Below, in pieces: positions 11,140 through 54,455 of a stretch of DNA of 64,000 nucleotides. The notes beneath the pieces are model-generated. The model saw only the letters and a list, made by a program, of their open reading frames with translations, searched no databases and was not told the DNA's origin. Where the stretch lies: NCBI GenBank assembly GCA_965205205.1, contig CBDBFX010000002.1, positions 1,373,506 through 1,437,505 of the forward strand, in the 5' to 3' direction. A program made the position numbers and the translations under genes. Source of the stretch: Arenicellales bacterium (GTDB lineage Bacteria > Pseudomonadota > Gammaproteobacteria > Arenicellales > JAJDZL01). Each line of letters begins with the position of its first letter. The stretch's first letter is position 1.

Positions 11140-12383
11140 AGCAGTCCCTCCAGGTCGATTTCTCCCACCTCATGCAGGGCGCTCAGCTGAACCTTGGCGT
11201 AAGTGGCGGTCGAACCGATGCGGTCATGTCCCAGGTAGTCGCTGACCACCTTCATTGACAGACCCTGATCCAGCAGGTGCTGGGCCACTCCATGTCGAAA
11301 GGCATGCGGCCCCCGACGTCTGCCACTCATTCCGAGCCGGTCGGCGCGGCGCCTGACAATCTGGTAAATCACCGTCCCGGTGAGCGGTCCCAGCGGCGCC
11401 TTCATCTTGACGAACAGGGTTCTTTCACCAATTGTGGGGCGCACCTCGTGCAGGTACCGGGCGAGCGCCCGGCTGACAGCCGACGACAGCGGATAATGAT
11501 CGGTGCGCGGTGATTTCAACCGGCGCACGGTCACTCGCCGTTCCCTCCAGTCGATGTCATCAAGCGTCAGCGCGGCCACCTCGCCGGCGCGCAGACCGTA
11601 AGTCGCCAGCAGCAGCAGAATGGCGAGGTCGCGCCGGTCCACGGGACGTTCCCCGGTGGCGCTGGCCAGCAGGTCGGCCACTTCCTGTCGGCTGAAGCCC
11701 TTGGGCACCGATTCGCCAGGATGCAGCCGCGGCGGCGTCAGCCCGTCGGCCAGATGGGGTGCGCACCAGCCCTGAGCGGCGGCGAAACGCAGGAAGACGC
11801 GCAGATGATGCGTATAGGTTTGAATGGTCGTACGACACAGACCCCGCGCCCACCAGTCCGACACCAGCCGATCGATGTCGTGCAGCGCGATGGCGTCCAG
11901 ATCGCCGCCCGTCTCATCCAACCGTCTGAACACAAAGTCAGCGACGCGGCGTCGGCTGGCAATCGTCCCCACTGAACAGCCCCGCTCCGCCCGCATCCAG
12001 TCGACATAGGCCGCCACCCGCCCGGTGTGGCCGTGGGGTGACTGACCGAGGTCCGCTTCAAGCATGCCGGCATGGCGCAGCCAGCGGACCGAACCGCTGA
12101 CGAACCGCCGTCGTCTCGTGTCTTTCAGCGGCCGGTGATAATGAGACCCCGCAGGTGGCGACCATTCGGCGGCCGCCTCGATGCGGGACCGGCTGACGCC
12201 GTCACCGGGTCGCAGATTGAGAATTTCAACCAGACGGCACTGGGTCGCGGCAACGGCGCGCAGGGAGCCCCGACGCGCACCGCACCGGGCGCAGTGCTCA
12301 AGATAGGAAAGCCGCTCATCATGTAACGGTGCCCAGTGGTACCGGTCAATGGTGGCGGCGTCGGTAAACAGAGTTTCAAACAT
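11136..12383 (-). CDS. ritA: first RIT tyrosine recombinase (415 aa)
   Basis: Intact ORF. LRAGEVAALTLDDIDW, HAFRHGVAQHLLDQG and YLGHDRIGSTATYAKV give the R..HxxR..Y pattern. Largest and first gene of the trio. Confidence 0.85.
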   Translation of the reverse strand: MFETLFTDAATIDRYHWAPLHDERLSYLEHCARCGARRGSLRAVAATQCRLVEILNLRPGDGVSRSRIEAAAEWSPPAGSHYHRPLKDTRRRRFVSGSVRWLRHAGMLEADLGQSPHGHTGRVAAYVDWMRAERGCSVGTIASRRRVADFVFRRLDETGGDLDAIALHDIDRLVSDWWARGLCRTTIQTYTHHLRVFLRFAAAQGWCAPHLADGLTPPRLHPGESVPKGFSRQEVADLLASATGERPVDRRDLAILLLLATYGLRAGEVAALTLDDIDWRERRVTVRRLKSPRTDHYPLSSAVSRALARYLHEVRPTIGERTLFVKMKAPLGPLTGTVIYQIVRRRADRLGMSGRRRGPHAFRHGVAQHLLDQGLSMKVVSDYLGHDRIGSTATYAKVQLSALHEVGEIDLEGLL

Positions 12384-22985: not shown

Positions 22986-25595
22986 CTGTCAACAAACCAC
23001 ACTTAACACGAAGAAAATAATTTGCTAAATTATGTGGCATGCAAATCGGCATGCGACAATATGACAAAGAGACGGTAGCTTGGTTCCGGCAGGCGGTGGT
23101 CGGGGGCGAGACCTCGCGGACGCAGTTGGCGTCGCAGCTGTGTGAACGGCTGGACTGGCGCAATGCGAAGGGCGAGCTGTGTGAGGCGTCGGCCCGAAAG
23201 GTGCTGCCGACGCTGGCGTTGCGGCTGGACGTCAAGCTGCCGGCGCCGGTGCGGCCGGCACCGTTGCGTTCGGCGGCCGGGTTGCCAGCGCCGCCGGTGG
23301 TCTGCGTGTCGGGGTCGCTGGCGGATTTGGGGGCGGTGACTTTGGTGCCGGTGGTCGATGAGGCAACCAGCGTGCCGTTTCGGGCGCTGATGGCCTGGCA
23401 TCATCCGGAGGGGGAGCCGCGGCATCCGGGCAAGCAGCTGTGCTGGCTGATTCACAGCGAACGTCATGGGGTGTTGGGTGGCATCGGATTTGTGGCGGCG
23501 GGGTGGCATCAGCAGGCGCGCGACCGGTTCATCGGCTGGGGTGCGCGGGCGCGGGTGGCGAACCTTCATCAGGTGGTGAACCATCATCGTTTTTTACTGT
23601 TGCCAGGGGTGCGGGTGGCGAATCTGGCGTCGCATGTGCTGGGTCAGGCGGTGGCGGCGTTGCCGGCGGCCTGGTGGCGGCGTCATCGGGAGACGGTGGT
23701 GCTGACGTATACGTATGTGGGCCCGGCGCATGCGGGGACCTGTTATCGGGCGGCGGGATGGTCGTGTGCCGGACAGACGTCGGGTCGCTCGCCGAGTGGT
23801 GGCGAGGGGGTGCGGCGGACGGTGTGGATGAGGCCGCTGGTGGCGGGGTGGCAGGCGACGCTGCAGGCGGCGCCGGTGCGGACGTTGCCGGTGGGTCCGG
23901 CGCGGCATGCGGCGGGCGACTGGGCGACCCGGGAGTTCGGTGGGAACGGTCTGACGGATGGTCGTCTGCGGCAGCGTCTGATCGAGATGGGTCGGTGCTG
24001 GCAGCAGCGGCCGGGGGCGCCAGTGGCGGAGATTTTTCCGGAACCGGCGGATCAGCGGGCGGCCTATCGGCTGCTGTCCAATGCCCGGGTCAGTTCGGCC
24101 GATGTGCTGGAGAGTCATCAGGCGATGACGGTGCAGCGGGTGGGCGAGGCGGACGGGACGGTGCTGGTGGTGCAGGACACCACGGTGCTGAACTACCAGA
24201 CGCTGCGCGACTCGACCGCCGGTCTGGTGGCGATTGGTGGCGGCGGTTCGGGCAGTGTGGGGGTGGTGGCCCATGTGCTGCTGGTGCTGACGCAGACGGG
24301 TCAGCCGTTGGGGGTGTTGGATGTGGAAGCGGATTTTCGGGCGCCGGGGCCAAAGACCGCGCGGCGGGCGGCGGCCGGCGCCAAGAAGGAAAGTGGTCGG
24401 TGGCTGCGCGGCTTCGAGCGCACGGCGGAGCTGGGGCGGGCCGATGGCGACAGGCGGGTGGTGACGGTGGGCGACCGCGAGGCGGACCTGTGGGCGCTGT
24501 ATGCGCGCCAGGCGGTGGAACCGACCGCCGGTCTGTTGGTGCGGGTGGCCGCGGGGAATCGGCGGCGGGTGCAGGTCGGCGATGAGACGCCACTGCTGGA
24601 AGACTACCTGGCCTCACTGGCGCCGTGCGCCACGACCGAGGTGGCGGTTCAGGCCCGTGGCGGGGCGCACGCCCGCGGCCATCGGACCGTGTCGGTGAAC
24701 CTACAGATCGCGCGGGTGCGCGTGTGTGCGCCGCGCGGCGAGCAGCCGTCCCACCTGACGCTGACGGCGGTGCGGGTGAGCGACGCGGCACCGGAAGACG
24801 GCCGCCCGCCGCTGCACTGGCTGCTGCTGTGTTCCGAAGGCGAGGCCACGGCCGAGTGGGCGCAACGCATCCAAGGTTGGTATCAGCGCCGCTGGAGCAT
24901 TGAGGAGTACTTTCGGGTGCTCAAGACTGGCACCCGCATCGAGGATCGGCAGCTTGATGCGGCCGAAGACCTGTGCAAGTGTCTGTGCTTCGATGCCATT
25001 GCCGCCTGGCAGGTGTTCGCCCTGCAGCGGGCCGCCCGCCATCAGCCGGAGTGCCCGGCCGAGCAGTTCGTCACCGGCGAGCAGATCGAGGTGCTCTATG
25101 CCTGTCTGCGCCGGGTGCGCATCCGACATCCGCGCGGCCCGCCCAAGGGCGCGCTTGACATCCGCACCTTTGTCATTGATGCGGCCCGCTTCGCCGGCTT
25201 CCGACCGTCGCGTCGGCAACCGCTGCCGGGGGCACAGAAACTGTGGAGCGGTCTGCGCTATCTGCAGTGGGCCCTGCTCGGCTATCAGGCCGCCGTTGAA
25301 GACGAGTCCCGGCCGCGTCGAAGACGACCGAGCCGGCGTTCTTGACGCCGGCCGCGCGGCCGGCACCAACCGGCCGCCAACCGCTCTCGGTCCGACCGGC
25401 CGAGACGGCCGCGCGGGCCGAAAACCCCCTCATCCGACCCGGCGCACCACCCGCGGCACCCGCCACCGACTCCCCACGGCCCGCACCGTCCCCTCACCGC
25501 CAAGCCACTACGAAAAACAGACCTGAAAGGGCCGATCCCTTGCCTTCCGATTGCAAAGGCGCGACATCACTGTGTTACGTGTGACTTCGTGACAG
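22986..25595 (+). mobile_element. IS-A copy 2 (2610 bp)
   Basis: CTGTCAACAAACCACACTT at 22986 and the reverse complement of CTGTCACGAAGTCACACG ending at 25595. 9-bp TSD GGCGCGGAC (22977-22985 and 25596-25604). Confidence 0.9.
23039..25345 (+). CDS. IS-A transposase (768 aa): DUF4338-like N-domain + Tn5-type DDE domain
   Basis: Intact. Differs from copy 3 at only two positions that I can see (CEA/CES and VRP/VRS). Confidence 0.85.
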   Translation: MQIGMRQYDKETVAWFRQAVVGGETSRTQLASQLCERLDWRNAKGELCEASARKVLPTLALRLDVKLPAPVRPAPLRSAAGLPAPPVVCVSGSLADLGAVTLVPVVDEATSVPFRALMAWHHPEGEPRHPGKQLCWLIHSERHGVLGGIGFVAAGWHQQARDRFIGWGARARVANLHQVVNHHRFLLLPGVRVANLASHVLGQAVAALPAAWWRRHRETVVLTYTYVGPAHAGTCYRAAGWSCAGQTSGRSPSGGEGVRRTVWMRPLVAGWQATLQAAPVRTLPVGPARHAAGDWATREFGGNGLTDGRLRQRLIEMGRCWQQRPGAPVAEIFPEPADQRAAYRLLSNARVSSADVLESHQAMTVQRVGEADGTVLVVQDTTVLNYQTLRDSTAGLVAIGGGGSGSVGVVAHVLLVLTQTGQPLGVLDVEADFRAPGPKTARRAAAGAKKESGRWLRGFERTAELGRADGDRRVVTVGDREADLWALYARQAVEPTAGLLVRVAAGNRRRVQVGDETPLLEDYLASLAPCATTEVAVQARGGAHARGHRTVSVNLQIARVRVCAPRGEQPSHLTLTAVRVSDAAPEDGRPPLHWLLLCSEGEATAEWAQRIQGWYQRRWSIEEYFRVLKTGTRIEDRQLDAAEDLCKCLCFDAIAAWQVFALQRAARHQPECPAEQFVTGEQIEVLYACLRRVRIRHPRGPPKGALDIRTFVIDAARFAGFRPSRRQPLPGAQKLWSGLRYLQWALLGYQAAVEDESRPRRRRPSRRS

Positions 25596-27245: not shown

Positions 27246-29079
27246 GTGTCTGCAAGAAAACTCGAAAAAGTGAGATAATTATCTGATATCATGTGAATAA
27301 TATCGTATAATTGTGAACGAAGAATTGGCCTTTTGCCCTGAAAAAGGGGCGATTTCAGCCGATTCGCCGACTTTTCACCCAATCTTCGCCAGGCAGACAA
27401 GCAATGAGAGACATCATCAACCCGAATCTCGAACTGGGTGGCGTCGACATCATGGCCATTGAGATCGACCACCACTCGAGAGACGACATGCCGGCGGTGC
27501 TGCTGGGCCTGCAGGCGCTGTACAGTGACCCGCAGGTGAGAAAGCGGCTGTTCGCGCGGCTGGAGACGGAGGCGCTGCCGGGGGTGGATCTGAACAACGG
27601 CCGCCCGGGCATGGCGCTGTGGTCGGGACTGGTGATGGCGATGGTCAAGCAGGCGTTGAACTGCGATTTTGATCGTTTGCATGATCTGGTGGCCAACCAT
27701 AATAAACTGCAGCTGATGCTGGGTCATGGTACATGGATGGAGCCGCCGTACACGCTGCAGCAGGTGATCGACAACGTAAATCTGTTCCGCGCGGAACTGC
27801 TGGACAAGGTGTCGGCGCTGGTGGTGGAGGCGGCGCACCGGCGAGCGGGTCATCAGCCGGGCGAGGCGTTGAAAGGACGCTGCGATTCATTCGTGGCGCA
27901 GACGGACGTGCATTATCCGACCGACACCGGGCTGCTGAATGATGCGGCGCGCCGGCTGCTGGGTCTGATGCATCAGGCGCAGGCGTGTCATCAGGTGTCC
28001 GGGTGGCGGCAGTACCGACATCTGCAGCGAAAGCTGCGCGGTCTGTACAACGGCATCCGCCAGGCGAAGCAGGCGAAGGCGGACCCGGCGGCTTTGAAAG
28101 AATATCTGAGTTGGTGCGACGGGGTGGTGTCACGGGTCTGCGAGACGCGGGATCAGCTGATGCGGCAGGGGGTGTCGGGTGCGCTGCTGGACGAGGTGGT
28201 CACGTTCCTCGGCTACGCCGAGAAGCTGTCGGGTCAGGTGGTGCGGCGGCTGCAGCGCGGCGAGCAGATTCCGCACTCGGAGAAGATCTTTTCGGTGTTC
28301 GAGCCGCACACTCGGTGGATCGTCAAGGGCAAAGCGGGGGTGGCGGTGGAGTTGGGGGTGCCGGTGTGCATCGTCGAAGATCAGCATCAGCTGATCCTGT
28401 GTCAGAAGGTGATGTGGGAGGGCAGTGATGTGGACCATGCGGTGCCGGTGATCAAGGAGACGCTGCGGCGTCATCCGGATCTGAACCGATGCAGTTTCGA
28501 CCGCGGCTTTCACAGTCCGGCGGTGCAGCGGCAGTTGCAGGAGCTGCTGACTTACTGCGTGCTGCCGGTCAAGGGACGGCGTTCGCAGGCGGTGCGGGAG
28601 CGGGAGGAGCAGGCGTGGTTCCGCGAGTCGCGTCGTCAGCATCCGGCGGTGGAGTCGGCGATCAACAGTCTGCGGCATCGGGGTCTGGTGCGGGTGCGCA
28701 GTCATGGTGCGGCGGGCTTTGCGCGCACGGTGGCGCTGTCGGTGCTGGCTTACAACGTGCATCGGTATGGGGTGATGGTGCGCGACGAGTTGCGGGCGCG
28801 GGAGCGGCGGAAGCTGAAGCGGGCCGCCTGACGGCGGCGGTTGGCCAAAAGGGGTGTTGAACCGGTCCCGCCAGGGGACTGGATGGAGTCCTATGGGCCG
28901 AATTCGGCATTCGCCGCCCGACTGACGAAAAAAGCGTGCCAATCGGCGCAAAACGACCGAATGTTCAGAAATCTTCTCGCCCCGAACCCTCAGCCATCCA
29001 TTTTCTTCTCGATTCGAGGCTTCAGAAAATCAACATCGCCGGACATTTCATGCGAAAATGGGGGTTTTCTGGCAGACAC
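27246..29079 (+). mobile_element. IS-C copy 3 (1834 bp)
   Basis: Same termini. 6-bp TSD TAGATA (27240-27245 and 29080-29085). Inserted between LDGI and YVVRTS of the IS1634-B relic. Confidence 0.9.
27404..28831 (+). CDS. DDE transposase of IS-C (475 aa)
   Basis: Full-length paralogue. Confidence 0.75.
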   Translation: MRDIINPNLELGGVDIMAIEIDHHSRDDMPAVLLGLQALYSDPQVRKRLFARLETEALPGVDLNNGRPGMALWSGLVMAMVKQALNCDFDRLHDLVANHNKLQLMLGHGTWMEPPYTLQQVIDNVNLFRAELLDKVSALVVEAAHRRAGHQPGEALKGRCDSFVAQTDVHYPTDTGLLNDAARRLLGLMHQAQACHQVSGWRQYRHLQRKLRGLYNGIRQAKQAKADPAALKEYLSWCDGVVSRVCETRDQLMRQGVSGALLDEVVTFLGYAEKLSGQVVRRLQRGEQIPHSEKIFSVFEPHTRWIVKGKAGVAVELGVPVCIVEDQHQLILCQKVMWEGSDVDHAVPVIKETLRRHPDLNRCSFDRGFHSPAVQRQLQELLTYCVLPVKGRRSQAVREREEQAWFRESRRQHPAVESAINSLRHRGLVRVRSHGAAGFARTVALSVLAYNVHRYGVMVRDELRARERRKLKRAA

Positions 29080-29216
29080 TAGATACCGTCCAGCCGTGCT
29101 TCTCGGGGGATAGAATCGGTGTTGCGGGCGTAGTCAAAGGTGGTGTCGGTAATCCCGGTGTCGAAATGCTTGGCCACCTTGAATCGGTCCTTGACCCGAC
29201 CCAGGCGCAGGACGAT

Positions 29217-29420
29217 GGTCTGACAGATTCAGACCGGAACTGACAAGGCCCGACGCATCAGCTCCTTTCCGTCCTCCAATCGCCGCATCTGACCGACCGT
29301 TTTCTCAATCCCAGCGATGAGGTTCCGCCGACCCACGAAATGGAGTGCCTCTTCCCTGTCGGAGCACTCTGAAAACTCCACCAGACTCTTTTGCTTTTCC
29401 TCATCCTGTATGGCTTCCAT
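29217..29420 (-). pseudogene. ATPase 5' stub (first ~65 codons, frameshifted)
   Basis: MEAIQDEEKQKSLVEFSECSDREEALHFVGRRNLIAGIEKTVGQMRRL is homologous to the N-terminus of 13927..15234. Homology stops at the palindrome GGTCTGACAGATTCAGACC (29217-29235), where it is fused to the IS1634-B relic. Confidence 0.8.
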
Positions 29421-29525
29421 GATGCATCGGGTCAGTTGCATCGACTGCATTGACCGGCACAAAGCGACCGTCGAAACCTGACTGCGGTTCTGGTTTTCTC
29501 AGGCCTGCTGGCGGCCCCGGCCGCG

Positions 29526-30893
29526 GTGTTCGCGGAAGCGTCCTGGTACGGCTCGCTGCGCGGCGGCGTCCTGCTCGACAAGGGCAAAGATGCCAGGTTC
29601 TACGACGGCTACTCGCGCTGGGGCATCAAAGGCTCGAACGAGATATCGGAAGGGCTGTCCGCAGTCTACCGCTTCGAGCACAAGTTCAGCACCGAGGACG
29701 CCGGCCAGGCCGGCGGCCGGCTGGCCTACGTGGGCCTGTCCGGTGGTTTTGGCTCGCTGACGCTGGGACAGATCTGGAGCGCCAGCTACAACCACGCCGG
29801 CGTCATCCGCGACATCGGCAATTATTACAGCAGTGGCGACACCAGTGGCCGGATCGGCAACACCCTGTCCTACGCCTATTCGAACGACGCCTTCAGCGTG
29901 CAGTTCGACGCCATCATGGACGGTAAGAAGGACTCCGGCAACGCCATCGATCAGTGGGAACTCGGGGCGACGGTGAACATCGGCGATATCGGCAAAGTCG
30001 CCTTCGCCCATGTGAAGAAGGAAGACGTCAAAACGGGCAATAAAATGGTGAGGGTGACCAAGTGGTCCGGCGGCGGCCAGTGGCTCTACAGCCCGAAACT
30101 ATGGTCGAAAAACGCGGAAAGCACCTGGTCCATCAGTAAAAAAGGAACGGACAACACTCTAACTGCTGGTACTGGCGAGTTTCAGGAAGAATTTGAAAAA
30201 GGAAAGGAGATGAGAGTCGTTGTTCAACCAATAACCGTTTATGTCAAGCTGCCAAACACCAATTATGACGCGGATAAAAAACAATTGAAAGATGCGGTGG
30301 CGGGTACCCTTCATGGCCATCCCAGTTTTCAACGAATCACAGGAAGTGGTGGTGATTCGAATGTCAAACTTAATCCCAAGGTTTCTTTTCGGTATGGTGC
30401 TGCGTGTGATCCCACCACCCCACCAAGAGACGAGACTAAATGTGTAAAGACTACCGCCTATCAGGCTGAATTGAAACATAATGCAATAGTCGACAACGGC
30501 GTATTCTTTTTCGCTCCCGGTCATGTTGAGGATGAGATGGACTATGGCGAGAAGTCAAGCCACGTGTCGGCATCGTTTGACCTCGGTGCGGTGACCCTGG
30601 GTCTGGGCCATTCGACGACGAAGTTCATGGATCCGATGAAGACGAAGAAGGCGAAGACGAACTACATCGGCGTCAACGGTGCCATTGGCGACACCGGGCT
30701 GGACTGGCGGGCCTGGTATCGGACCAAGGAGGAGGTGAAGGACAACAACATGACGGTGAAGTCGAAGCCCTGGGGCATCGGTTTGGGCAAGAAACTCGGC
30801 GGTGGCGCTTTGGCCTATGTCGAGCATTGGAACGATGGCGCGAAAGGCGCAAAGAAATCCGGCACGGTGGTCGGCCTGCGCGTCGATTTCTAG
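29526..30893 (+). CDS. porin P2 (general bacterial porin type, type-I central insert); start unresolved
   Basis: EASWYGSLRGGV...RWGIKGSNEISEGL...YVGL.GGFG.LTLGQ N-block and C-terminal ...GGGALAYVEHWNDG...TVVGLRVDF (terminal F). Track coordinates use GTG 29526. The signal-peptide codons (LTAVLVFSGLLAAPAAVFA) lie in frame upstream, behind a TGA at 29451-29453. Confidence 0.75.
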   Translation: MFAEASWYGSLRGGVLLDKGKDARFYDGYSRWGIKGSNEISEGLSAVYRFEHKFSTEDAGQAGGRLAYVGLSGGFGSLTLGQIWSASYNHAGVIRDIGNYYSSGDTSGRIGNTLSYAYSNDAFSVQFDAIMDGKKDSGNAIDQWELGATVNIGDIGKVAFAHVKKEDVKTGNKMVRVTKWSGGGQWLYSPKLWSKNAESTWSISKKGTDNTLTAGTGEFQEEFEKGKEMRVVVQPITVYVKLPNTNYDADKKQLKDAVAGTLHGHPSFQRITGSGGDSNVKLNPKVSFRYGAACDPTTPPRDETKCVKTTAYQAELKHNAIVDNGVFFFAPGHVEDEMDYGEKSSHVSASFDLGAVTLGLGHSTTKFMDPMKTKKAKTNYIGVNGAIGDTGLDWRAWYRTKEEVKDNNMTVKSKPWGIGLGKKLGGGALAYVEHWNDGAKGAKKSGTVVGLRVDF

Positions 30894-30922
30894 CGACCGG
30901 CTCTTTCACATTGGGAGAATGG

Positions 30923-30950
30923 AACGGGGTGCGAAAGCACCCCGTTTCGT
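30923..30950 (+). terminator. hairpin terminator after P2
   Basis: AACGGGGTGC-GAAA-GCACCCCGTT followed by TCGT. The same stem recurs after all four porins. Confidence 0.6.
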
Positions 30951-31142
30951 CGTACCATGGATTTGAAGATCATCTGAGACGGGGTGCGGTTTCAAGCCGC
31001 AGCCCTGAAACATACCGGCGGCTCAATCCACCTCAGACCGGTTCGGAGACGTTGCAAAGTGATCTTCTGCCAACATCGCCGAACAAGGTACCGGGCGGTG
31101 AATCTCAGATTTCTGTCTTTCATCCGCGTTTCAGGCGGAACC

Positions 31143-31171
31143 AAAAAAACGGGGTGCAATAGCACCCCGTT
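31143..31171 (-). terminator. rho-independent terminator after P3
   Basis: On the minus strand: ACGGGGTGC-TATT-GCACCCCGT followed by TTTTTTT. Confidence 0.8.
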
Positions 31172-31198
31172 CCATTCTCATCAATGTGAACTCGGTCG

Positions 31199-31976
31199 CT
31201 AGAAACTCACGCCCAGTCCGACCACCGTGCCACTGGATTTCTTTGCTCCTTTCACACCGTCATTCCAATGCTCGACATAAGCCCAGGCGCCACCGCCCAG
31301 ATCCTTGCCCAACCCGATGCCCCAGGGCTTCGTCTTCGTGCCGTCGGCATGCTCCTTGGTCCGATACCAGGCCCGCCAGTCCAGCCCGGTGTCGTCAATG
31401 CCACCGTTAACGCCGATGTAATTCGTCTTCGTCTTCATGGCTCCCGCCTTGTTCGACTTCATCGTCGAATGACCCAGTCCCAAGGTGACCGCACCGATTT
31501 CAAACGATGCCGATATGTGATTCGACTTGCTGCCCGGCTCGCTGATAACTCTTTTGGTGACTGATTGCGTGCTGGCCGGTGTCAAGACTTGACTCGGCAA
31601 ATAGTAGAACGCCTGTATCTCGTCACTAACCTTTTTTGCGCCGGCCGATGTTCCCCCTGGAGTTTCGGTCGTGCCGAAATGTGCATAGGCGTCTATTTTC
31701 ACACACGCATCGGAAATACCATCATCAGTGTTTTTTTTGTCTATACATTCATATTTACCACTAGCCTTTTCGGTCTCAATAACGAACCAATAACTGTCGG
31801 GGTCGCCAACGGGATGATTGCCTTTACGAAGGGCCGTTATTTGAAGGTTGTATAGAGTGATTTGCTGAGTGTCCTTGCTGAGATCTGGAGCGTCAAAAGC
31901 CCCGCCTTTCTTCACATAGACCTTGATTTTCTTGACCTCTCTGAATTCAACAGCACCGGTGTTAGCAACAACTAGA
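31199..31976 (-). pseudogene. porin P3, 3' part (type-II central insert + C-block)
   Basis: ...ITALRKGNHPVGDPDSYWF...SKSNHISASFEIGAVTLGLGHST...AYVEHWNDG...VVGLGVSF. Separated from its 5' part by IS-C copy 4. Confidence 0.85.
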
Positions 31977-33476
31977 TAATTAGTGTCTGCAAGAAAACTC
32001 GAAAAAGTGAGATAATTATCTGATATCATGTGAATAATATCGTATAATTGTGAACGAAGAATTGGCCTTTTGCCCTGAAAAAGGGGCGATTTCAGCCGAT
32101 TCGCCGACTTTTCACCCAATCTTCGCCAGGCAGACAGGCAATGAGAAACATCATCAACCCGAATCACGAACTGGGCGGCATTGACATCACGGCCATTGAG
32201 ATCGACCACCACTCGAGAGACGACATGCCGGCGGTGCTGCTGGGCCTGCAGACGCTGTATCGCGACCCGCAGGTGAGAGAGCGGCTGTTCGCGCGGCTGG
32301 AGACGGAGGCGCTGCCGGGGGTGGACCTGAACAACGGTCGCCCGGGCATGGCGCTGTGGCCGGGACTGGTGATGGCGGTGGTCAAGCAGGCGTTGAACTG
32401 CGATTTCGATCGCCTGCATGATCAGGTGCGAAACCATGTGGACCTGCAGCGGATGATGGGTCATGGTTCATTGATGAAGCCGCCGTACACGCTGCAGCAG
32501 GTGGTGGACAATGTGAATCTGTTCAGTGCGGAACTGCTGGACAAGGTGTCGGCGCTGGTGGTGGAGGCGGCGCACCGGCGTGCGGGTCATCAGCCGGGCG
32601 AGGCGTTGAAAGGACGCTGCGATTCATTCGTGGCGCAGACGGACGTGCATTATCCGACCGACACCTCACAAGGGCCCACACTTGATTCTCAGAACATAAT
32701 GTGATAAAACAGGGCCTACCATGAAAGTAGGCCTGCATCAGTTTCACGCCCAGACCATCGACTGGTTTCAGAAGGCGGTGTCGACGCCGGGTGTGTCGCG
32801 CAACGCCCTGGCCCGCGGGCTGTGCGAGCGCGACGAGTGGACCGGTCCGACGGGTGAGTTGTGTGTGGCGGCGGCCCGCAAGGCGCTGCCGGTGCTGGCT
32901 GGGCGGCTGGGCGTGGCATTGCCGGCGCCGCACCCGGCATTCGGTTCGGGCGGCCGTGAGGCGCCGCCTGAGGCGGCTTATCCGGACCGCGCGCTGCGTG
33001 GCCCGCTGTCAGCGCTGGGTGAGGTGACGGTCGAGCCGGTGTCGGGCGATGAGGAACGGCGGCTGTGGGAGTCGATGATGCGCACGCATCATCCGCAGGG
33101 CTGGGCTCAGGCGCCGGGTGGCCAGCTGCGCTACTGGGTGTGTTCTTCGCGCTACGGTCGTCTGGGCGGGCTGAACTTCTGTGCGGCGAGCTGGCACCAG
33201 CAGGTGCGCGATGCGTTCATCGGCTGGTCGGGTGAGGCGCGGGTGTCGAATCTGAGTCGGGTGCTGAACAACCAGCGGCTGCTGATTCTGCCGGGGGTGC
33301 GGGTTCACGGTCTGGCCTCTCGGGTGCTGGAGCTGGCGTGTGCGCAGGTGGTTGAGGACTGGGAGGCGAAATACAATGTACGACCGGTGCTGGCGTACAC
33401 GTATGTGGCGCCCGAGCATCCGGGGACCAGCTACCGGGCGGCGGGTTGGCAGTGCGGTGCGGGCGGCACCTCGGGT

Positions 33477-35826
33477 CTCACAACATCCCACAGTTGAATC
33501 TATTCATTCTGGATCATGCCTCGCCTTCTGAGCGAGCGATAGGTAAAGACCGCCTCCCGCAGCAGCACATATCCCTGCCACAGTTTCATGACGCCCGGCA
33601 GCGGCTGACTGCGGCGCGGATGAAAACCCGCCAGCCGCGCCACATCGACGACGAAACTGCGGATGTCTGGCGCCTCGCCCGGTGGCGGCTGCGGCCGGCG
33701 GATGCCATAATCGTCCAGTCGGGTGTTCAGCACCAGCAGGTCATCTTCACTCACCACCTCGTCGGCCGGCGTCTGCGGGCGGTCGCGCGCCATCCGATCG
33801 AGGCTGAACACCTCACAGGCGGTGATGGCATCGAACGTCAGGCACTTGCGCAGGTCATCGGCATGGTCCAGCTGCCGCGCCTCTATGCCGGCGCCAGTCT
33901 TCAGGGTGCGGAAGTACTCCTCAATGGTCCAGCGCAGCTCATAGTGCCGCAGGGCGGTGCTGGCGCCGTCGGCATCGGCCTGCCCCTCGGTGGTCAGCAG
34001 CAGCCAGTGCAGCGGCTGCTCACCGGCCGGCGGGTCCGCTTCAATCGCACTGACCGCCAGCATCTCAATCGGCGCCGTATCCGCCCCCGAGGGCGGTCGC
34101 CGCGGTGGCGCCAGCCGCACCCGCGCCGCCCGCAACGCCAGCCGCACCTCGCGCCCCGCACGCTTCCGGCCACCCCCGCAGGCCACCACCTGCACGGTCT
34201 TCTCCGCCAGCGACGGCAACCTCTCCATGTGCGCCCACAGACACTCGCGCTTCCCGCCTGCCAACAGCACCTCGCGGCGACTCCCGCGCCGCACCCGAAC
34301 CAGCAGCCCGGCCGACTGCGCGCGCGCCTGATCCAGCAGCCCCCACAGGTCGCCCTCCCGATCGCATACCGTCACCACCCGCGTCCGCGCACAGGCCCGC
34401 TCCAGCTCACAGGCCCGTGCCAGACCTTCGCCCCAGCGCTCGCTTTCCAGCTCCAGCCGATCCGCATAGTCCGCATCCAGCGCATACACCCCCAGCGGTC
34501 GCCCCGCCTCGTTCACCGCCAGACCCACATGCGCCTTCAGACCCTGCACGCCCGACCCACCGCCACCAATGTTCACCAGCCCCGCCGTCGCCGGCCGACT
34601 CGCATAGTTCAGCGCCGTCGTGTCCTGCAGCGCCAGCACCACCGGCTCCAGCCGACAGCGATCCACCATCGCCGCCCAGTGCGGCTCCAAGATGTGTTCC
34701 ATTGTCACTCGCTCATTTGACAACAGCCGGTAAGCCGCACGCAAGTCCGCCCGCCGGGGAAAGATCTGCGGCAGCGATGCCCCCGGCCGCTCCAGCCACG
34801 CCCGACCCATGCGCAAGATCCGCGCGCACACCCGACCGTCCGGATGCCGGCTGCGGCCATATTCCACAACCGCCCAATCCGTCTTCTCATCCATGTGCAG
34901 CGCCGGCGCCGCCTGAATCTGCCGCACCGGCTCGGCGCACAGCACCGTCCGCCAGCCGCGCACCAGCGGTTTCAGCCACACTGCCCGCACCACCGTGCCA
35001 CCACTCGGCGAGCGACCCGAGGTGCCGCCCGCACCGCACTGCCAACCCGCCGCCCGGTAGCTGGTCCCCGGATGCTCGGGCGCCACATACGTGTACGCCA
35101 GCACCGGTCGTACATTGTATTTCGCCTCCCAGTCCTCAACCACCTGCGCACACGCCAGCTCCAGCACCCGAGAGGCCAGACCGTGAACCCGCACCCCCGG
35201 CAGAATCAGCAGCCGCTGGTTGTTCAGCACCCGACTCAGATTCGACACCCGCGCCTCACCCGACCAGCCGATGAACGCATCGCGCACCTGCTGGTGCCAG
35301 CTCGCCGCACAGAAGTTCAGCCCGCCCAGACGACCGTAGCGCGAAGAACACACCCAGTAGCGCAGCTGGCCACCCGGCGCCTGAGCCCAGCCCTGCGGAT
35401 GATGCGTGCGCATCATCGACTCCCACAGCCGCCGTTCCTCATCGCCCGACACCGGCTCGACCGTCACCTCACCCAGCGCTGACAGCGGGCCACGCAGCGC
35501 GCGGTCCGGATAAGCCGCCTCAGGCGGCGCCTCACGGCCGCCCGAACCGAATGCCGGGTGCGGCGCCGGCAATGCCACGCCCAGCCGCCCAGCCAGCACC
35601 GGCAGCGCCTTGCGGGCCGCCGCCACACACAACTCACCCGTCGGACCGGTCCACTCGTCGCGCTCGCACAGCCCGCGGGCCAGGGCGTTGCGCGACACAC
35701 CCGGCGTCGACACCGCCTTCTGAAACCAGTCGATGGTCTGGGCGTGAAACTGATGCAGGCCTACTTTCATGGTAGGCCCTGTTTTATCACATTATGTTCT
35801 GAGAATCAAGTGTGGGCCCTTGTGAG
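33477..35826 (-). mobile_element. IS-B inner copy (2350 bp, intact)
   Basis: Same ends in inverted orientation. 9-bp TSD ACCTCGGGT (33468-33476 and 35827-35835) inside the outer copy's transposase gene. Confidence 0.9.
33500..35770 (-). CDS. IS-B transposase (756 aa): DUF4338-like N-domain + Tn5-type DDE domain
   Basis: YRLLSNERV, LQDTTALNY, VCDREGDLW, YELRWTIEEYFRTLKTG. N-half: RDAFIGW..NLSRVLNNQRLLILPGVRVHGLAS..GTSYRAAGW. Confidence 0.85.
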   Translation of the reverse strand: MKVGLHQFHAQTIDWFQKAVSTPGVSRNALARGLCERDEWTGPTGELCVAAARKALPVLAGRLGVALPAPHPAFGSGGREAPPEAAYPDRALRGPLSALGEVTVEPVSGDEERRLWESMMRTHHPQGWAQAPGGQLRYWVCSSRYGRLGGLNFCAASWHQQVRDAFIGWSGEARVSNLSRVLNNQRLLILPGVRVHGLASRVLELACAQVVEDWEAKYNVRPVLAYTYVAPEHPGTSYRAAGWQCGAGGTSGRSPSGGTVVRAVWLKPLVRGWRTVLCAEPVRQIQAAPALHMDEKTDWAVVEYGRSRHPDGRVCARILRMGRAWLERPGASLPQIFPRRADLRAAYRLLSNERVTMEHILEPHWAAMVDRCRLEPVVLALQDTTALNYASRPATAGLVNIGGGGSGVQGLKAHVGLAVNEAGRPLGVYALDADYADRLELESERWGEGLARACELERACARTRVVTVCDREGDLWGLLDQARAQSAGLLVRVRRGSRREVLLAGGKRECLWAHMERLPSLAEKTVQVVACGGGRKRAGREVRLALRAARVRLAPPRRPPSGADTAPIEMLAVSAIEADPPAGEQPLHWLLLTTEGQADADGASTALRHYELRWTIEEYFRTLKTGAGIEARQLDHADDLRKCLTFDAITACEVFSLDRMARDRPQTPADEVVSEDDLLVLNTRLDDYGIRRPQPPPGEAPDIRSFVVDVARLAGFHPRRSQPLPGVMKLWQGYVLLREAVFTYRSLRRRGMIQNE

Positions 35827-38534
35827 ACCTCGGGTCGCTCGCCGAGTGGTGGCACGGTGGTGCGGGCAGTGTGGCTGAAACCGCTGGTGCGCGGCTGGCG
35901 GACGGTGCTGTGCGCCGAGCCGGTGCGGCAGATTCAGGCGGCGCCGGCGCTGCACATGGATGAGAAGACGGATTGGGCGGCTGTGGAATATGGCCGCAGC
36001 CGGCATCCGGACGGTCGGGTGTGCGCGCGGATCTTGCGCATGGGTCGGGCGTGGCTGGAGCGGCCGGGGGCATCGCTGCCGCAGATCTTTCCCCGGCGGG
36101 CGGACTTGCGTGCGGCTTACCGGCTGTTGTCAAATGAGCGAGTGACAATGGAACACATCTTGGAGCCGCACTGGGCGGCGATGGTGGATCGCTGTCGGCT
36201 GGAGCCGGTGGTGCTGGCGCTGCAGGACACGACGGCGCTGAACTATGCGAGTCGGCCGGCGACGGCGGGGCTGGTGAACATTGGTGGCGGTGGGTCGGGC
36301 GTGCAGGGTCTGAAGGCGCATGTGGGTCTGGCGGTGAACGAGGCGGGGCGACCGCTGGGGGTGTATGCGCTGGATGCGGACTATGCGGATCGGCTGGAGC
36401 TGGAAAGCGAGCGCTGGGGCGAAGGTCTGGCACGGGCCTGTGAGCTGGAGCGGGCCTGTGCGCGGACGCGGGTGGTGACGGTATGCGATCGGGAGGGCGA
36501 CCTGTGGGGGCTGCTGGATCAGGCGCGCGCGCAGTCGGCCGGGCTGCTGGTTCGGGTGCGGCGCGGGAGTCGCCGCGAGGTGCTGTTGGCAGGCGGGAAG
36601 CGCGAGTGTCTGTGGGCGCACATGGAGAGGTTGCCGTCGCTGGCGGAGAAGACCGTGCAGGTGGTGGCCTGCGGGGGTGGCCGGAAGCGTGCGGGGCGCG
36701 AGGTGCGGCTGGCGTTGCGGGCGGCGCGGGTGCGGCTGGCGCCACCGCGGCGACCGCCCTCGGGGGCGGATACGGCGCCGATTGAGATGCTGGCGGTCAG
36801 TGCGATTGAAGCGGACCCGCCGGCCGGTGAGCAGCCGCTGCACTGGCTGCTGCTGACCACCGAGGGGCAGGCCGATGCCGACGGCGCCAGCACCGCCCTG
36901 CGGCACTATGAGCTGCGCTGGACCATTGAGGAGTACTTCCGCACCCTGAAGACTGGCGCCGGCATAGAGGCGCGGCAGCTGGACCATGCCGATGACCTGC
37001 GCAAGTGCCTGACGTTCGATGCCATCACCGCCTGTGAGGTGTTCAGCCTCGATCGGATGGCGCGCGACCGCCCGCAGACGCCGGCCGACGAGGTGGTGAG
37101 TGAAGATGACCTGCTGGTGCTGAACACCCGACTGGACGATTATGGCATCCGCCGGCCGCAGCCGCCACCGGGCGAGGCGCCAGACATCCGCAGTTTCGTC
37201 GTCGATGTGGCGCGGCTGGCGGGTTTTCATCCGCGCCGCAGTCAGCCGCTGCCGGGCGTCATGAAACTGTGGCAGGGATATGTGCTGCTGCGGGAGGCGG
37301 TCTTTACCTATCGCTCGCTCAGAAGGCGAGGCATGATCCAGAATGAATAGATTCAACTGTGGGATGTTGTGAGGACCGACACCGGGCTGCTGAATGATGC
37401 GGCGCGCCGGCTGCTGGGTCTGATGCATCAGGCGCAGGCGTGTCATCAGGTGTCCGGGTGGCGGCAGTACCGACATCTGCAGCGAAAGCTGCGCGGTCTG
37501 TACAACGGCATCCGCCAGGCGAAGCAGGCGAAGGCGGACCCGGCGGCTTTGAAAGAATATCTGAGTTGGTGCGACGGGGTGGTGTCACGGGTCTGCGAGA
37601 CGCGGGATCAGCTGATGCGGCAGGGGGTGTCGGGTGCGCTGCTGGACGAGGTGGTCACGTTCCTCGGCTACGCCGAGAAGCTGTCGGCTCAGGTGGTGCG
37701 GCGATTGCTGCGCGGCGAGCAGATTGTGCACTCGGAGAAGATCTTTTCGGTGTTCGAGCCGCACACTCGGTGGATCGTCAAGGGCAAAGCGGGGGTGGCG
37801 GTGGAGTTGGGGGTGCCGGTGTGCATCGTCGAAGATCAGCATCAGCTGATCCTGTGTCAGAAGGTGATGTGGGAGGGCGGTGATGTGGACCATGCGGTGC
37901 CGGTGATCAAGGAGACGCTGCGGCGTCATCCGCAGTTGGAGAAGTGCAGTTTCGACCGCGGCTTTCACAGTCCGGCGGTGCAGCGGCAGTTGCAGGAGCT
38001 GCTGACTTACTGCGTGCTGCCGGTCAAGGGACGGCGCTCGCAGGCGGTGCGGGAGCGGGAGGGGCAGGCGTGGTTCCGCGAGGCGCGTCGTCAGCATCCG
38101 GCGGTGGAGTCGGCGATCAACAGTCTGCGGCATCGGGGTCTGGTGCGGGTGCGCAGTCATGGTGCGGCGGGCTTTGCGCGCACGGTGGCGCTGTCGGTGC
38201 TGGCTTACAACGTGCATCGGTATGGGGTGATGGTGCGCGACGAGTTGCGGGAGCGGGAGCGGCGGAAGCGGGCCGCCTGACGGCGGCGGTTGGTCAAAAG
38301 GGGTGTTGAACCGGTCCCGCCAGGGGACTGGATGGAGACCTATGGGCCGAATTCGGCATTCGCCGCCCGACTGACGGAAAAAGCGTGCCAATCGGCGCAA
38401 AACGGCCGAATGTTCAGAAATCTTCTCTCCCCGAACCCTCAGCCATCCATTTTCTTCTCGTTTCGAGGCTTCATAAAATCAACATCGCCGGACATTTCAT
38501 GCGAAAATGGGGGTTTTCTGGCAGACACTAATTA

Positions 38535-39199
38535 TTAAGTGAACCTATTCCGACTTTGGGTGGTGTCATCGTGACCGTCGTCTGATTTTCCATCTGATCT
38601 TCCATACTCACATGGGCGAAAGCGACTTTGCCGATGTCGCCGATGTTGACCGTTGCCCCGAGTTCCCACTGATCGACGGCCTTGCCGGTGTCTTTCCCGC
38701 CTTCCATGATGGCATCGAACTGCACGCTGAAAACGTCGTTCGAATAGGCGTAGGACAGCGCGTTGCCAATCCGGAAGCTGGTGTCCGAATCGCTGTAATA
38801 ATTGCCGATGTCGCGGATGACGCCGGCGTGGTTGTAACTGGCGCTCCAGATCTGTCCCAGCGTCAGCTTGCCGAAACCGCCGTCCAGGCCCACGTAGGCC
38901 AGCCGGCCTTTGGTCGCTTTCCTGGCCAGACCGGCATCCGTGGTGCTGATGGCGTGCTCGAAGCGGTAGACTGCGGACAGGCCTTCCGAGATCTCGTTCG
39001 AGCCCTTGATGCCCCAGCGCGAGTAGCCGTCGTAGAACTCGGCGTCCTCGCCCTTTTTCAGCTCGACGCCGCCGCGCAGCGAGCCGTACCAGGACGCTTC
39101 CGCGAACACCGCGGCCGGCGCCGCCAGCAGGCCTGAGAAAACCAGAACCGCAGTCAGGTTTTGACGGTCGCTTTGTACAGGTGAATTCAACTGATGCAA
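38535..39199 (-). pseudogene. porin P3, 5' part (the only copy with an in-frame start and open leader)
   Basis: TTG start at 39199, then HQLNSPVQSDRQNLTAVLVFSGLLAAPAAVFA/EASWYG... through KVAFAHVSMED and the start of the type-II insert. Ends at the IS-C TSD. Confidence 0.85.
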
Positions 39200-39214
39200 C
39201 TGAACTGGTGCATC

Positions 39215-39435
39215 ATGGAAGCCATGTGGAATGAGGAAAAGGAAAGGGGTCTGACGGAGTTTTCAGAACGGTCCGACAGGGAAGAGGCACTCTATTTCGT
39301 GGGTCGGCCAGACCTCATCGCTGGGATTGAGAAAACGGTCGGTCAGATGTGGCGGCTGGTGGCCGGAAAGGAGGTGTCGGACCTTGTCAGTTCCGGTCTG
39401 AATCTGTCAGACCGGCCCCCTGGCTGGTGCGGGAT
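39215..39435 (+). pseudogene. ATPase 5' stub
   Basis: MEAMWNEEKERGLTEFSERSDREEALYFVGRPDLIAGIEKTVGQMWRLVAGKEVSDLVSSGLNLSD. Homology extends a few codons past the palindrome (39395-39413), then is lost. Confidence 0.8.
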
Positions 39436-49942: not shown

Positions 49943-50502
49943 TCGAAGTTCTGGAAGTAAATAGACGATAGGTGTTTGTTATTTTGGTGATATGACGACT
50001 ATCCAATGCTCAATTTCTAACCAATTTTAATTTTTACGTGAAGACACAAGGTGCCTAGGTGTCCGTGCAGGCCGCGGAAGTGATGGGTCGGATGACCATC
50101 TACCGTGCGCCGCGTCGCCGCTTTGTGGTGGGCACTGGCAGAAAGAACGCTGGGACGCACCGGTGAGCCTGGCCTCCTCCTGGGCGGTCATCGTCCGCGA
50201 ACAGCAGTGGTGCCATGCCTGTCTTAGGGGCCACTCAACGTGATCGGCGAGCAGGCACAGGAAGATGGAAAAGGGGGGGGGCGCGAACTCGTTCAGTCAG
50301 CCGATGATGGATCGGACGTACCTGCAGATCAATCGTTTTCAGACAGCGGAACGCCCGTTACACGCTGGCCAGGCTATTGTAGGGGCGCACGGCGGCACTC
50401 GGCTCCCAGTCTGGATTCGGACACCGAGATGCGAACCACATAGATGCCGTCCAGCCGTGCTTCTCAGGCGATGCCCTTGACCCGACCTAGGCGCAGGGTG
50501 AT
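49943..50502 (-). mobile_element. IS1634-type B relic, copy 2 (heavily decayed)
   Basis: The first ~95 nt are near-identical to 26663-26760. The remainder aligns with copy 1 but has stops, a deletion of the KHFDT..DSIPR block, and a G9 tract (50273-50281). Confidence 0.7.
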
Positions 50503-50701
50503 GGTCTGACAGATTCAGACCGGAACCGACAAGGTTCGACACCTCCTTTCCGGGCGCCAGCCGTCGCATCTGACCGATCATATTCACAATGCTGCCGATG
50601 AGGTCGCGCCGACCCACGAAATAGATTGCCTCTTCCCTGTCGGAGCACTCTGAAAACTCCGTCAGACCCCTTTCCTTTTCCTCATTCCACATGGCTTCCA
50701 T
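50503..50701 (-). pseudogene. ATPase 5' stub
   Basis: MEAMWNEEKERGLTEFSECSDREEAIYFVGRRDLIGSIVNMIGQMRRLAPGKEVSNLVGSGLNLSD. Ends at the palindrome (50503-50521), fused to the IS1634-B relic at the same point as at 29217. Confidence 0.8.
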
Positions 50702-50842
50702 GATGCATCAGATCAACTGTATTCACCGGCGCAAAGCGACCGTCAAAACCTGACTGCGGTTCTGGTTTTCTCAGGCCTGCTGGCGGCGCCGGCCGCGGTT
50801 TTCGCGGAGGCGTCCTGGTACGGCTCGCTGCGCGGCGGCGTC

Positions 50843-53935: not shown

Positions 53936-54033
53936 TGCGGCCGGCGCCGCCAGCAGGCCTGAGAAAACCAGAACCGCAGTCAGGTTTTGACGGTCGCTTT
54001 GCGCCGGTCAATGCAACTGACACCCGATGCATC

Positions 54034-54241
54034 ATGGAAGCCATGTGGAATGAGGAAAAGTAAGGGGTCTGACGGAGTTTTCAGAACGTTCTGACAGGGA
54101 AGAGGCACTCTATTTCGTGGGTTGACGGGACCTCATCGCCGGGATGGAGAAAACGGTCGGTCAGATGCGGCGATGGGAGGACGGAAAGGAGTTGATGCGT
54201 CGAACCTTGTCGGTTCTGGTCTGAATCTTTCAGACCAGCGC
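54034..54241 (+). pseudogene. ATPase 5' stub, degenerate
   Basis: MEAMWNEEK then TAA at 54061, plus later frameshifts. Ends at the palindrome variant GGTCTGAATCTTTCAGACC (54218-54236) + AGCGC. Confidence 0.75.
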
Positions 54242-54455
54242 CCTGCGCCTGGGTCGGGTCAAGTGCCGATTCAAGGTGGCCAAGCATTTCGACACCGTGA
54301 TCACCGACACCACCTTTCACTACGCCCGCAACAACGATTCGATCGCCCGAGAATTACGGCTGGACGGCATCTATGTGGTTCGCACCTCGGTGTCCGAATC
54401 CAGACTGGAGGCGAGTGCCGACGTGCGGCGCCTACAAGAGCCTGGCACGTCCGGA
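54242..54455 (+). mobile_element. IS1634-type B relic, copy 3
   Basis: LRLGRVKCRFKVAKHFDTVITDTTFHYARNNDSIARELRLDGIYVVRTSVSESRLEASADV, then cut by an IS-B-like end. Confidence 0.75.

Follow-up and report, generated by a model that had tools for sequence, protein, structure and literature searches.

The DNA analyzed here is a 64 kb stretch, referred to below as the window, from the 3.8 Mb genome of an Arenicellales bacterium (GCA_965205205.1, contig CBDBFX010000002.1, positions 1,373,506–1,437,505). It carries a family of porin genes in which two conserved barrel-coding blocks (the N-block and the C-block) enclose a divergent central insert, and several of these copies lack the beginning of the gene. 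A census by tblastn with copy P2 as the query, supplemented by translations, recovered six porin-like copies (P1, P2, P3, P5, P6, and P7) rather than the seven loci of an earlier sequence-only reading, and two of the six are degraded. P2 and P3 converge, their stop codons being separated by 305 bp, in line with the spacer of about 300 bp given by that reading; its limits for the P2 insert (30027–30543) were also close and are corrected here to 30015–30551. P5 and P6 form a second convergent pair that is built like P2/P3. The P3 gene is split by a nested block of insertion sequences (ISs): a 1.85 kb outer IS with termini TAGTGTCTGC, a 475-aa DDE transposase, and a 4 bp AATT duplication has in turn been invaded by a second IS, present in two inverted copies and encoding a DruA-Tn5-like fusion transposase. 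Removal of this block and of one AATT restores a 449-codon frame. The hairpin GGAACGGGGTGC-N4-GCACCCCGTTTC found downstream of P2 also lies 3' of P3, P5, P6, and the copies of a sister genome, and a conserved terminator hairpin stands about 30 nt past the stop codon in every copy.

Both profile and structure searches relate these copies to general porins. P2 matches the Pfam families Porin_4 (E=1.7e-17; bit score 64.7, cut-off 27) and Porin_1 (E=1.3e-9), with P5 and P6 giving similar results, and these matches fall in the N-block. An AlphaFold2 model of mature P2, for which a 120-sequence family alignment served as the input, reached a predicted local distance difference test (pLDDT) score of 87.8 and a predicted template modeling (pTM) score of 0.83; the P5 model (pLDDT 84.4) has the same layout. 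Nine barrel strands precede the insert and seven follow it in both models, which end in a terminal Phe, and a helix at residues 83–92 lies in the loop after strand 5, the position of the L3 constriction loop. Foldseek searches against the PDB returned OmpT, OmpU, BpsOmp38, Omp32, PorB, and OmpF (E about 1e-14; target-normalized TM-scores of 0.62–0.77), and a sequence search of solved structures gave an alignment to PorB over the N-terminal 100 residues only. Because a barrel of 16 strands has both ends in the periplasm, the connection after strand 9 is an extracellular loop, namely L5; this loop numbering rests on strand parity in the predicted models. According to these models, P2 and P3 are predicted to be the bodies of 16-strand general porins in which the insert replaces loop L5, and the strand count agrees with the earlier proposal of a discrete surface domain.

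The size of the insert is far beyond that of a usual porin loop, as had also been noted. Loop L5 measures about 22 residues in insert-less relatives of 300–345 aa and 167–180 residues in P2, P3, P5, and P6, and the domain ranges from 124 to 468 residues across the family. In the P2 model, confident long strands at 165–187, 224–238, and 303–336 carry the conserved motifs VRVTKW, ITVYVK, CVKTTAY, FFFAP, and HVEDEMDYGE, and the low-confidence stretches of the insert coincide with hypervariable sub-loops. The enlarged loop is thus modeled as a domain rich in beta structure, probably held together by a disulfide. Two additional modules at the ends of L5, PGEFKM after strand 9 and TVTETVRKT before strand 10, co-occur in the type I inserts of the source-genome paralogues P0008, P0009, P0011, and P0013. 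Such co-occurrence is what would be expected if the two modules were paired to lengthen a two-stranded stalk below the L5 domain.

The three-block organization is equally evident at the nucleotide level. In a codon alignment of P2, reconstructed P3, P5, and P6, identity is 84–89% in the N-block and 75–89% in the C-block; in the insert it amounts to 64% for P2–P6 and 59% for P3–P5, and to 34–40% between insert types. The G+C content at third codon positions (GC3) is 0.84–0.875 in the N-block, 0.70–0.81 in the C-block, and 0.42–0.53 in the insert. The sharp switch in identity and composition at the block edges that had been described from the sequence is therefore present in all four copies, and the composition switch sits at synonymous sites, far beyond chance. 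What had been described as an anomalously AT-rich insert is better seen from the opposite side, since six ordinary genes at 40–50 kb in the window have a GC3 of 0.53–0.575: the insert lies at or slightly below this background, and the barrel blocks are the GC3-enriched outliers. Across genomes, GC3 is 0.64–0.88 in multi-copy barrel blocks, 0.38–0.51 in inserts, and mostly 0.47–0.64 in insert-less porins. In both the source and the sister genome, the order of homogenization (N-block, then C-block, then insert) is also the order of GC3. Translational selection was rejected as the cause of the contrast, which lies inside a single mRNA.

Comparison of the blocks shows that the family evolves by homologous exchange with breakpoints at the block edges. 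Among informative sites, P6 sides with P2 over P5 by 147:49 in the insert and by 16:45 in the C-block (Fisher p=1.8e-11), and P5 sides with P3 over P6 by 137:63 in the insert and by 18:59 in the C-block (p=1.1e-11). Across 15 source-genome paralogues, N-block similarity and insert similarity are uncorrelated (Spearman 0.05). The N-block, insert, and C-block identities are 98/20/98% between P0008 (type I) and P5 (type II), 97/17/85% between P0006 and P0012, 80/28/97% between P0010 and P6, and 85/44/100% between P2 and P0013. Synonymous divergence (dS, Nei–Gojobori) is 0.21–0.32 in the N-block and 0.25–0.59 in the C-block; in the insert it rises to 0.67 (P2–P6) and 1.28 (P3–P5) and is saturated between types. 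This jump at the block edges means that the blocks differ in age, a result that gradual drift, even with a rapidly evolving loop, could not give. These discordant sites, uncorrelated identities, and dS discontinuities bear out the suggestion that cassette exchange, and not ordinary paralogue drift, shaped the family. The same block discordance was found among 12 copies compared in the sister genome, OZ220493; the nucleotide-level tests covered the window and this genome. Certain pairs there have an insert less diverged than both of its flanks, with proportions of synonymous differences (pS) of 0.17 against 0.52/0.46 and of 0.20 against 0.46/0.49, which has the look of a cassette moved between backgrounds. 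The C-blocks of P5 and P6 are the closest C-block pair in the window (88.8% nucleotide identity), and this value suggests local conversion between their abutting 3' ends. A diversity-generating retroelement target was also considered and rejected: comparison of the 64 kb with itself revealed no second copy of any insert sequence, and no reverse transcriptase was present among the larger window open reading frames (ORFs) scanned.

The inserts of the window belong to type I (P2, P6) or type II (P3, P5), and a third type is present elsewhere in the source genome (P0012). The first two had been regarded as unrelated, and a direct hhalign comparison between them is indeed not significant (probability 20%). 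However, type I aligns with g2b, an insert class of the sister genome, at a probability of 95% (E 3e-8, 108 columns), type II aligns with the same class at 88% (E 3e-6), and both are thereby linked through this intermediate. Exactly two Cys residues occur in 84 of 87 family inserts and in each window insert, where at least two had been noted, and the second always opens a C-[VAI]-x-[TAI]-x-[AIV]-Y strand. On these alignments, we regard types I and II as distant homologues with the two Cys and the anchor strands in common. A Pfam scan of the inserts alone gave no match. Database searches with the inserts, put forward as a check in the sequence-only reading, were informative for only one type. 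Against 1.84 billion representative proteins, the type I insert retrieved only the paralogue P0009, a fragment of 81 aa, and a single marginal match. Because this search returned only a paralogue and a fragment, with no outside relatives, the type I L5 domains appear to be specific to this porin lineage. The type II search gave no match and missed the known paralogues too, making it uninformative.

The copies had been treated as working porin genes, yet P2, P5, and P6 contain no start that would give a signal peptide. None of the three has an ATG, GTG, or TTG ahead of the hydrophobic signal-peptide core, and an in-frame TGA stands eight codons before this core in P2 and P6. The only start-type codon in the signal region of P2 is a GTG at 29526, three codons ahead of the cleavage site; the ORF list starts P2 and P6 at such a GTG and P5 at an ATG that belongs to the mature part. 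In the 54 bp spacer upstream of P2 there is no Shine-Dalgarno sequence, start codon, or sigma-70-like promoter, and a sigma-70-like promoter scan over 29000–29535 likewise found none. The Sec signal peptide with an initiator that characterizes a porin gene is lacking in P2, P5, and P6, and P3 has TTG only, without a Shine-Dalgarno sequence. As encoded here, P2 and P3 thus have no usable start and are not expressible porin genes. At least 14 paralogues are present in the source genome, and P0006 alone carries a canonical signal peptide (MKIIRNLTAVLVF..., MKIIRNLTAV). The deposited proteins P0001, P0004, P0005, P0007, P0009, and P0011–P0014, like numerous members from metagenomes, begin at spurious called starts (MFAEAS..., MLDKG..., MSVPSV...).

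This truncation extends to the whole family, which is confined to metagenome-assembled genomes of Arenicellales; two candidate sponge-associated families belong to this order. Only 15 of the 104 family proteins having the N-terminal motif possess a canonical MKK-type signal peptide, so that about 85% of the deposited family proteins are N-terminally wrong through gene-caller starts. The DNA of 67 copies from about 20 genomes was examined. Per genome, a canonical copy has a Shine-Dalgarno sequence, an ATG, and a complete signal peptide; the similarity of the remaining copies to it starts abruptly at one point, 5' of which the DNA is unrelated from copy to copy. This point falls just after the start codon in the source genome, OZ220493, and OZ242211, and within the LSxPSV motif of the signal peptide in OZ241837, OZ219781, CBDEVD, OY761535, and CAXXJB. 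Copies cut in LSxPSV are without the hydrophobic core and, as encoded, cannot be exported. Nevertheless, the frames of the start-less copies are open over 400–760 codons in the great majority of some 85 copies from more than 15 genomes, and the copies are arrayed in alternating orientation.

The sister genome offers the clearest view of a candidate expression site. Only copy g2_2 of OZ220493 has AGGAGA-N7-ATG (MKFRKNLMPV...), and it stands head-to-head with another porin copy. Between the two lies an AT-rich spacer of 495 bp (locus L001, 382–876), bounded by inverted arms at 7–381 and 877–1251. These arms, of at least 375 nt and 88% complementary, are the 5' parts of the two head-to-head porin genes.

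The features of the window, along with the partner genes in the sister genome, are listed in Table 1. A gene of about 430 aa for a STAND-like P-loop nucleoside triphosphatase (NTPase) stands head-to-head with every porin copy in the source genome and OZ220493, separated from it by 54–112 bp, and belongs to a repeated unit that precedes each porin; at least 5, 13, and 8 NTPase copies were counted in the source genome, OZ220493, and OZ219781, respectively. Its profile matches are AAA_22/AAA_16/NACHT, and a search for its function gave one weak PADLOC match and nothing useful in the PDB. Beside P2, P3, P5, and P6, only the first 65–100 or so NTPase codons survive. The window also has at least four copies of an IS whose transposase is an unusual fusion of DruA (Druantia) with Tn5-type Tnp_DNA_bind/DDE domains. 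Near P1, a third ORF accompanies two tyrosine-recombinase genes that overlap, and the group looks like a separate mobile element of the recombinase-in-trio type; a 45%-identical relative of the third ORF lies beside silent porins in OZ219781 (L013, 1090–1725). P1 and P7 belong to a more divergent subfamily with about 73% nucleotide identity to the other copies. Both have an ATG at the internal Met, TGG at the canonical-start position, and a shared internal deletion (GRLAYVGLSGGFG... is gone), and P7 is additionally frameshifted.

Table 1. Positions of the porin copies, their parts, and neighboring features (window coordinates unless a locus is named)
Feature	Position	Strand	Remarks
P1	~13778-13536	-	degraded pseudogene fragment
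P2	29526/29535-30893	+	tblastn, translation
P3	39100-38530 (N part) and 31977-31199 (C part)	-	IS-split
P5	50807-52120	+	type II insert
P6	53926-52559	-	type I insert
P7	62911-~63566	+	degraded pseudogene fragment
NTPase 5' remnant at P2	29229-29420	-	63 codons (MEAIQDEEKQKSLVEFSE...FVGRRNLIAGIEK), then stop; divergent from porin
P2 5' spacer, NTPase remnant to porin frame	29421-29474	.	54 bp; in-frame TGA 29451-29453
P2 signal-peptide remnant	29475-29534	+	NLTAVLVFSGLLAAPAAVFA; no initiator
P2 N-block	29535-30014	+	barrel strands 1-9, including L3 constriction loop with helix; GC3 0.86
P2 loop-L5 insert, type I	30015-30551	+	179 codons; two Cys; GC3 0.49
P2 C-block	30552-30893 (coding to 30890)	+	strands 10-16; C-terminal Phe; stop codon; GC3 0.81
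P2 downstream hairpin	30921-30948	+	terminator-type
P3 intrinsic terminator	31146-31173	-	12-bp stem, then T run
P3 C-block	31199-31528	-	with stop codon
P3 loop-L5 insert, type II, distal part	31529-31977	-	
Nested IS block splitting P3	31978-38529	.	includes second AATT target copy (31978-31981)
P3 loop-L5 insert, proximal part	38530-38608	-	ends in AATT target site
P3 N-block	38609-39100	-	strands 1-9
P3 signal-peptide remnant	39101-39199	-	in-frame TTG at 39199 and 39190, no Shine-Dalgarno
NTPase 5' remnant at P3	39215-39523	+	MEAMWNEEKERGLTEFSERSDREEALYFVGRPD...
NTPase remnant	~50475-50740		
NTPase remnant	~54000-54373		
Intact NTPase paralogue, partner of P1	13927-15234	+	
Intact NTPase paralogue, partner of P7	61441-63291	-	
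NTPase genes in OZ220493, locus L001	6730-8028, 8596-9888, 13384-14688		
IS with DruA-Tn5-like transposase	33500-35770	-	
IS with DruA-Tn5-like transposase	6791-9277	-	
IS with DruA-Tn5-like transposase	23039-25345	+	
IS with DruA-Tn5-like transposase	55470-57776	+	
Tyrosine-recombinase genes, overlapping	10192-11139, 11136-12383	-	
Third ORF beside P1	12630-13364	-	

Two short dyads were observed around the 5' ends of the porin copies. CTGAG-N6-CTCAG was seen at L008, L019, and L031 of OZ241837, L012–L018 of OZ219781, and L021 of OY761535. It was considered as a recombinase site at the junction and rejected, given that it is also found in single-copy insert-less porins; the dyad arises because of the LSxPS codons. 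A GTTGCA-N4-6-TGCAAC-like dyad recurs 5' of porin copies in several genomes, as GTTGCAAAAATGCAAC in the expression-site spacer of OZ220493 (L001, 703–722), as GTTGCAACATTGCAAC in OZ219781, and also upstream at L013/L014/L016/L018 and at about 29430–29450 in the window. This second dyad may be a regulator-binding site.

We consider it fairly probable that the start-less porin copies form a silent archive that feeds one expression site, P0006, by recombination. Since the copies at the P2/P3 locus have no usable start, we infer that they are silent archive copies. Recombination between paralogues keeps the barrel blocks (strands 1–9 and 10–16) alike and reassorts the L5 domains among barrel backgrounds, with the conserved flanking blocks as crossover substrates. 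Switching, and the direction and mechanism of transfer, would take the following form. The start-bearing P0006, whose status as an expression site rests on one annotated protein N-terminus, would be the single site of expression. Along one route, recombination in the shared 5' barrel block would invert the DNA between opposed copies; along another, an archive body or an L5 cassette would be copied into the expression site by gene conversion. In OZ220493, an exchange between the inverted arms would reorient the promoter and start to face the other gene, and an exchange with any opposed copy would place the body of that copy behind the start. Phages, grazers, or a host that recognize the cell surface would be the likely selective agent. 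A more far-reaching version, which we advance only tentatively and to which we give somewhat less than even credence, is that Arenicellales practice programmed surface variation on a major general porin, with one site holding the promoter, start, and partial signal peptide and an archive of at least 10 full-length bodies that lack starts, each bearing its own folded L5 "head" domain. In that version, bodies would reach the site by inversion or conversion through the GC-enriched barrel blocks, and the STAND-like NTPase would be co-amplified with each cassette.

Several observations weigh against a silent archive. The supposedly silent copies of OZ220493 keep an internal ATG after GGTGA at a workable distance, and they may be translated from it with a short, uncharged signal peptide. 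P3 and P0010 keep an upstream in-frame TTG, and the different, long N-terminus of P0003 might serve as a signal peptide. Traces of transfer into the expression site are also scarce. The best silent-copy match to the expression-site insert has 56% aa identity for P0006 and a proportion of nonsynonymous differences (pN) of 0.13 for g2_2, and no recent non-reciprocal conversion into the site was seen among the recovered copies, sets that may be incomplete. The insert core of P0006 is unique among the recovered paralogues and does not resolve into a mosaic of donors, and two metagenome scans for other bodies on the expression-site 5' end gave zero matches. The ORF lists of seven loci contain no recombinase beside the porin arrays, and tblastn with the window tyrosine recombinases gave weak matches only. 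Blanket positive selection on the insert is not supported, as dN/dS is 0.39–0.67 there (0.34–0.53 in the barrel). The GC3 contrast is absent in CBDEVD and OY761535, each with 3–5 copies. GC-biased gene conversion, which fits best and probably raised the GC3 of the barrel blocks, is for this reason an incomplete account.

Some of these points are what an ordinary expressed multigene family would produce, with a promoter for each copy in the short spacer next to the NTPase gene, non-canonical or internal starts, a diversifying L5, and occasional barrel conversion, and with no archive. The in-frame TTG codons of P3 and P0010, the purifying selection implied by the barrel dN/dS, the ATG at "NLMPV" with GGTGA 9 nt upstream in the sister-genome copies, and TTGCAT...TATAAA in the spacer are all in its favor. 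Nonetheless, we judge such a family unlikely, because P2, P5, and P6 are startless before the cleavage region, with a TGA in two of them, P2 has no promoter-like site 5' of it, copies in five other genomes are missing the hydrophobic core, and canonical signal peptides are as rare as noted above. Alternatively, the copies could be a graveyard of dead duplicates, produced by duplication, by IS activity, and by the deletion of 5' ends and with no present role. The frameshifted or deleted P1/P7, the IS in P3, the IS-crowded window, and the truncated NTPase partners of P2, P3, P5, and P6 would suit such decay. The long open frames and conserved terminators of the start-less copies do not suit it, nor do the two Cys and anchor strands kept in inserts that are not homogenized, and within a genome the copies are cut sharply at a common point despite unrelated upstream DNA. 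Decay without function is accordingly a poor explanation, and we give it little weight.

Those sharp points could instead reflect site-specific recombinase switching at the 5' junction, of the vsa or shufflon type, in place of RecA-type recombination in the barrel. Within a genome, every copy has the junction at one nucleotide (±1–3), and the DNA 5' of it is unrelated. The junction overlaps the CTGAG-N6-CTCAG dyad, the spacer of which is constant in each genome but not from genome to genome, copies of either orientation exist, and tyrosine recombinases are encoded at 10192–12383. This explanation strikes us as improbable, if a little less so than the graveyard, given that the dyad follows from the LSxPS codons and that the boundary in the source and sister genomes lies right after the start codon. 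Moreover, no recombinase lies beside the arrays examined, the window recombinases seem to belong to a mobile element of their own, and the N/insert/C mosaics need homologous exchange regardless. The least credible alternative, in our estimation very improbable, is that the AT-rich inserts are foreign domains captured into a conserved porin. It draws on the sharp change in GC and homology at the block edges and on the type I insert having no relatives beyond the source-genome porins among the 1.84 billion representatives. Set against it, the insert GC3 is close to the housekeeping range and the barrel blocks are the outliers, the two Cys, the anchor strands, and the loop position are the same order-wide, and no Pfam domain or outside homologue was found. 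The silent archive, conditional as it is, remains the reading we prefer.

If that archive is real and serves programmed surface variation, no earlier silent-archive system would be on record for an OmpF/PorB-type porin, and few for non-pathogenic marine bacteria. Uncultured, probably symbiotic marine bacteria would then be using the logic of pathogens against phages, grazers, or host recognition. The family would also provide a natural scaffold that displays a domain of 124–468 residues from porin loop L5. Furthermore, it would offer a natural test of GC-biased conversion in bacteria, with GC3 of up to 0.88 beside inserts of 0.38–0.53 in the same gene.

The surface loops L4–L7 of general porins are variable and exposed to phages and antibodies. 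OmpF, OmpC, PorB, Omp32, and OmpU/OmpT share with the present copies the 16-strand barrel, a helix-bearing L3, and a C-terminal Phe. The classical general porins, however, have an L5 of about 20 residues and normal starts and are single- or few-copy genes, whereas here the loop has 167–180 residues and the genes are multi-copy. To our knowledge, programmed surface variation from silent archives has hardly been described outside animal pathogens (Neisseria, Anaplasma, Treponema, Borrelia, Mycoplasma, and Campylobacter fetus), and we know of none described for a classical 16-strand general porin. A literature search returned no paper tying Arenicellales porins to such variation. The porin family nevertheless has the outline of a silent archive, with many 5'-truncated copies, conserved flanks, and a variable center, and it has that of an inversion system, with promoterless homologues that share a conserved 5' region in both orientations.

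Anaplasma Msp2/P44, in which one full locus bears the promoter and start-less donors recombine through conserved flanks (PMC4534519), is the closest in logic: it is a beta-barrel with a proposed porin function, a hypervariable surface center, and conserved 5' and 3' parts. The two differ in protein family (pfam01617 against Porin_4). Anaplasma donors are fragments cut at both ends, whereas each copy here holds the whole mature protein and a terminator, and the variable part is about 100 residues in Anaplasma and a folded L5 domain of 124–468 residues here. Conversion into the expression site has been documented in Anaplasma, whereas switching is inferred here from sequences. In Campylobacter fetus, complete promoterless sapA homologues share a conserved 5' region, and the one promoter lies on a segment between homologues of opposite orientation; inversion of this segment through the 5' regions changes the full-length gene that is expressed. 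The sap system is close in layout to the 495 bp spacer between 375 nt inverted porin 5' ends in OZ220493; it differs in that its product is an S-layer protein and in that the isomers of its invertible segment of about 6 kb have been demonstrated, whereas here the product is a porin and the layout is known from sequence.

In the vsa system of Mycoplasma pulmonis, a silent gene becomes linked by recombination to the promoter and N-terminal codons of the expression site (PMC4534519). Its silent genes without a promoter and N-terminal coding DNA resemble the junction inside the signal-peptide codons seen here. However, vsa uses a dedicated invertase and defined sites, neither of which was found beside the porin arrays examined, and its products are lipoproteins with tandem repeats, unlike porins. 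Neisseria pilE/pilS and Treponema pallidum tprK rely on arrayed promoterless donors and form segmental mosaics driven by homology (PMC4534519, PMC10063172). Their donors are short partial-gene cassettes, whereas the unit here is a folded loop domain or a gene body, and TprK varies seven short loops where a single L5 domain varies here. Compared with all of these systems, the Arenicellales family is new in three respects: the protein is an OmpF/PorB-type porin, the donors are full-length and carry terminators, and the unit of variation is a folded L5 domain.

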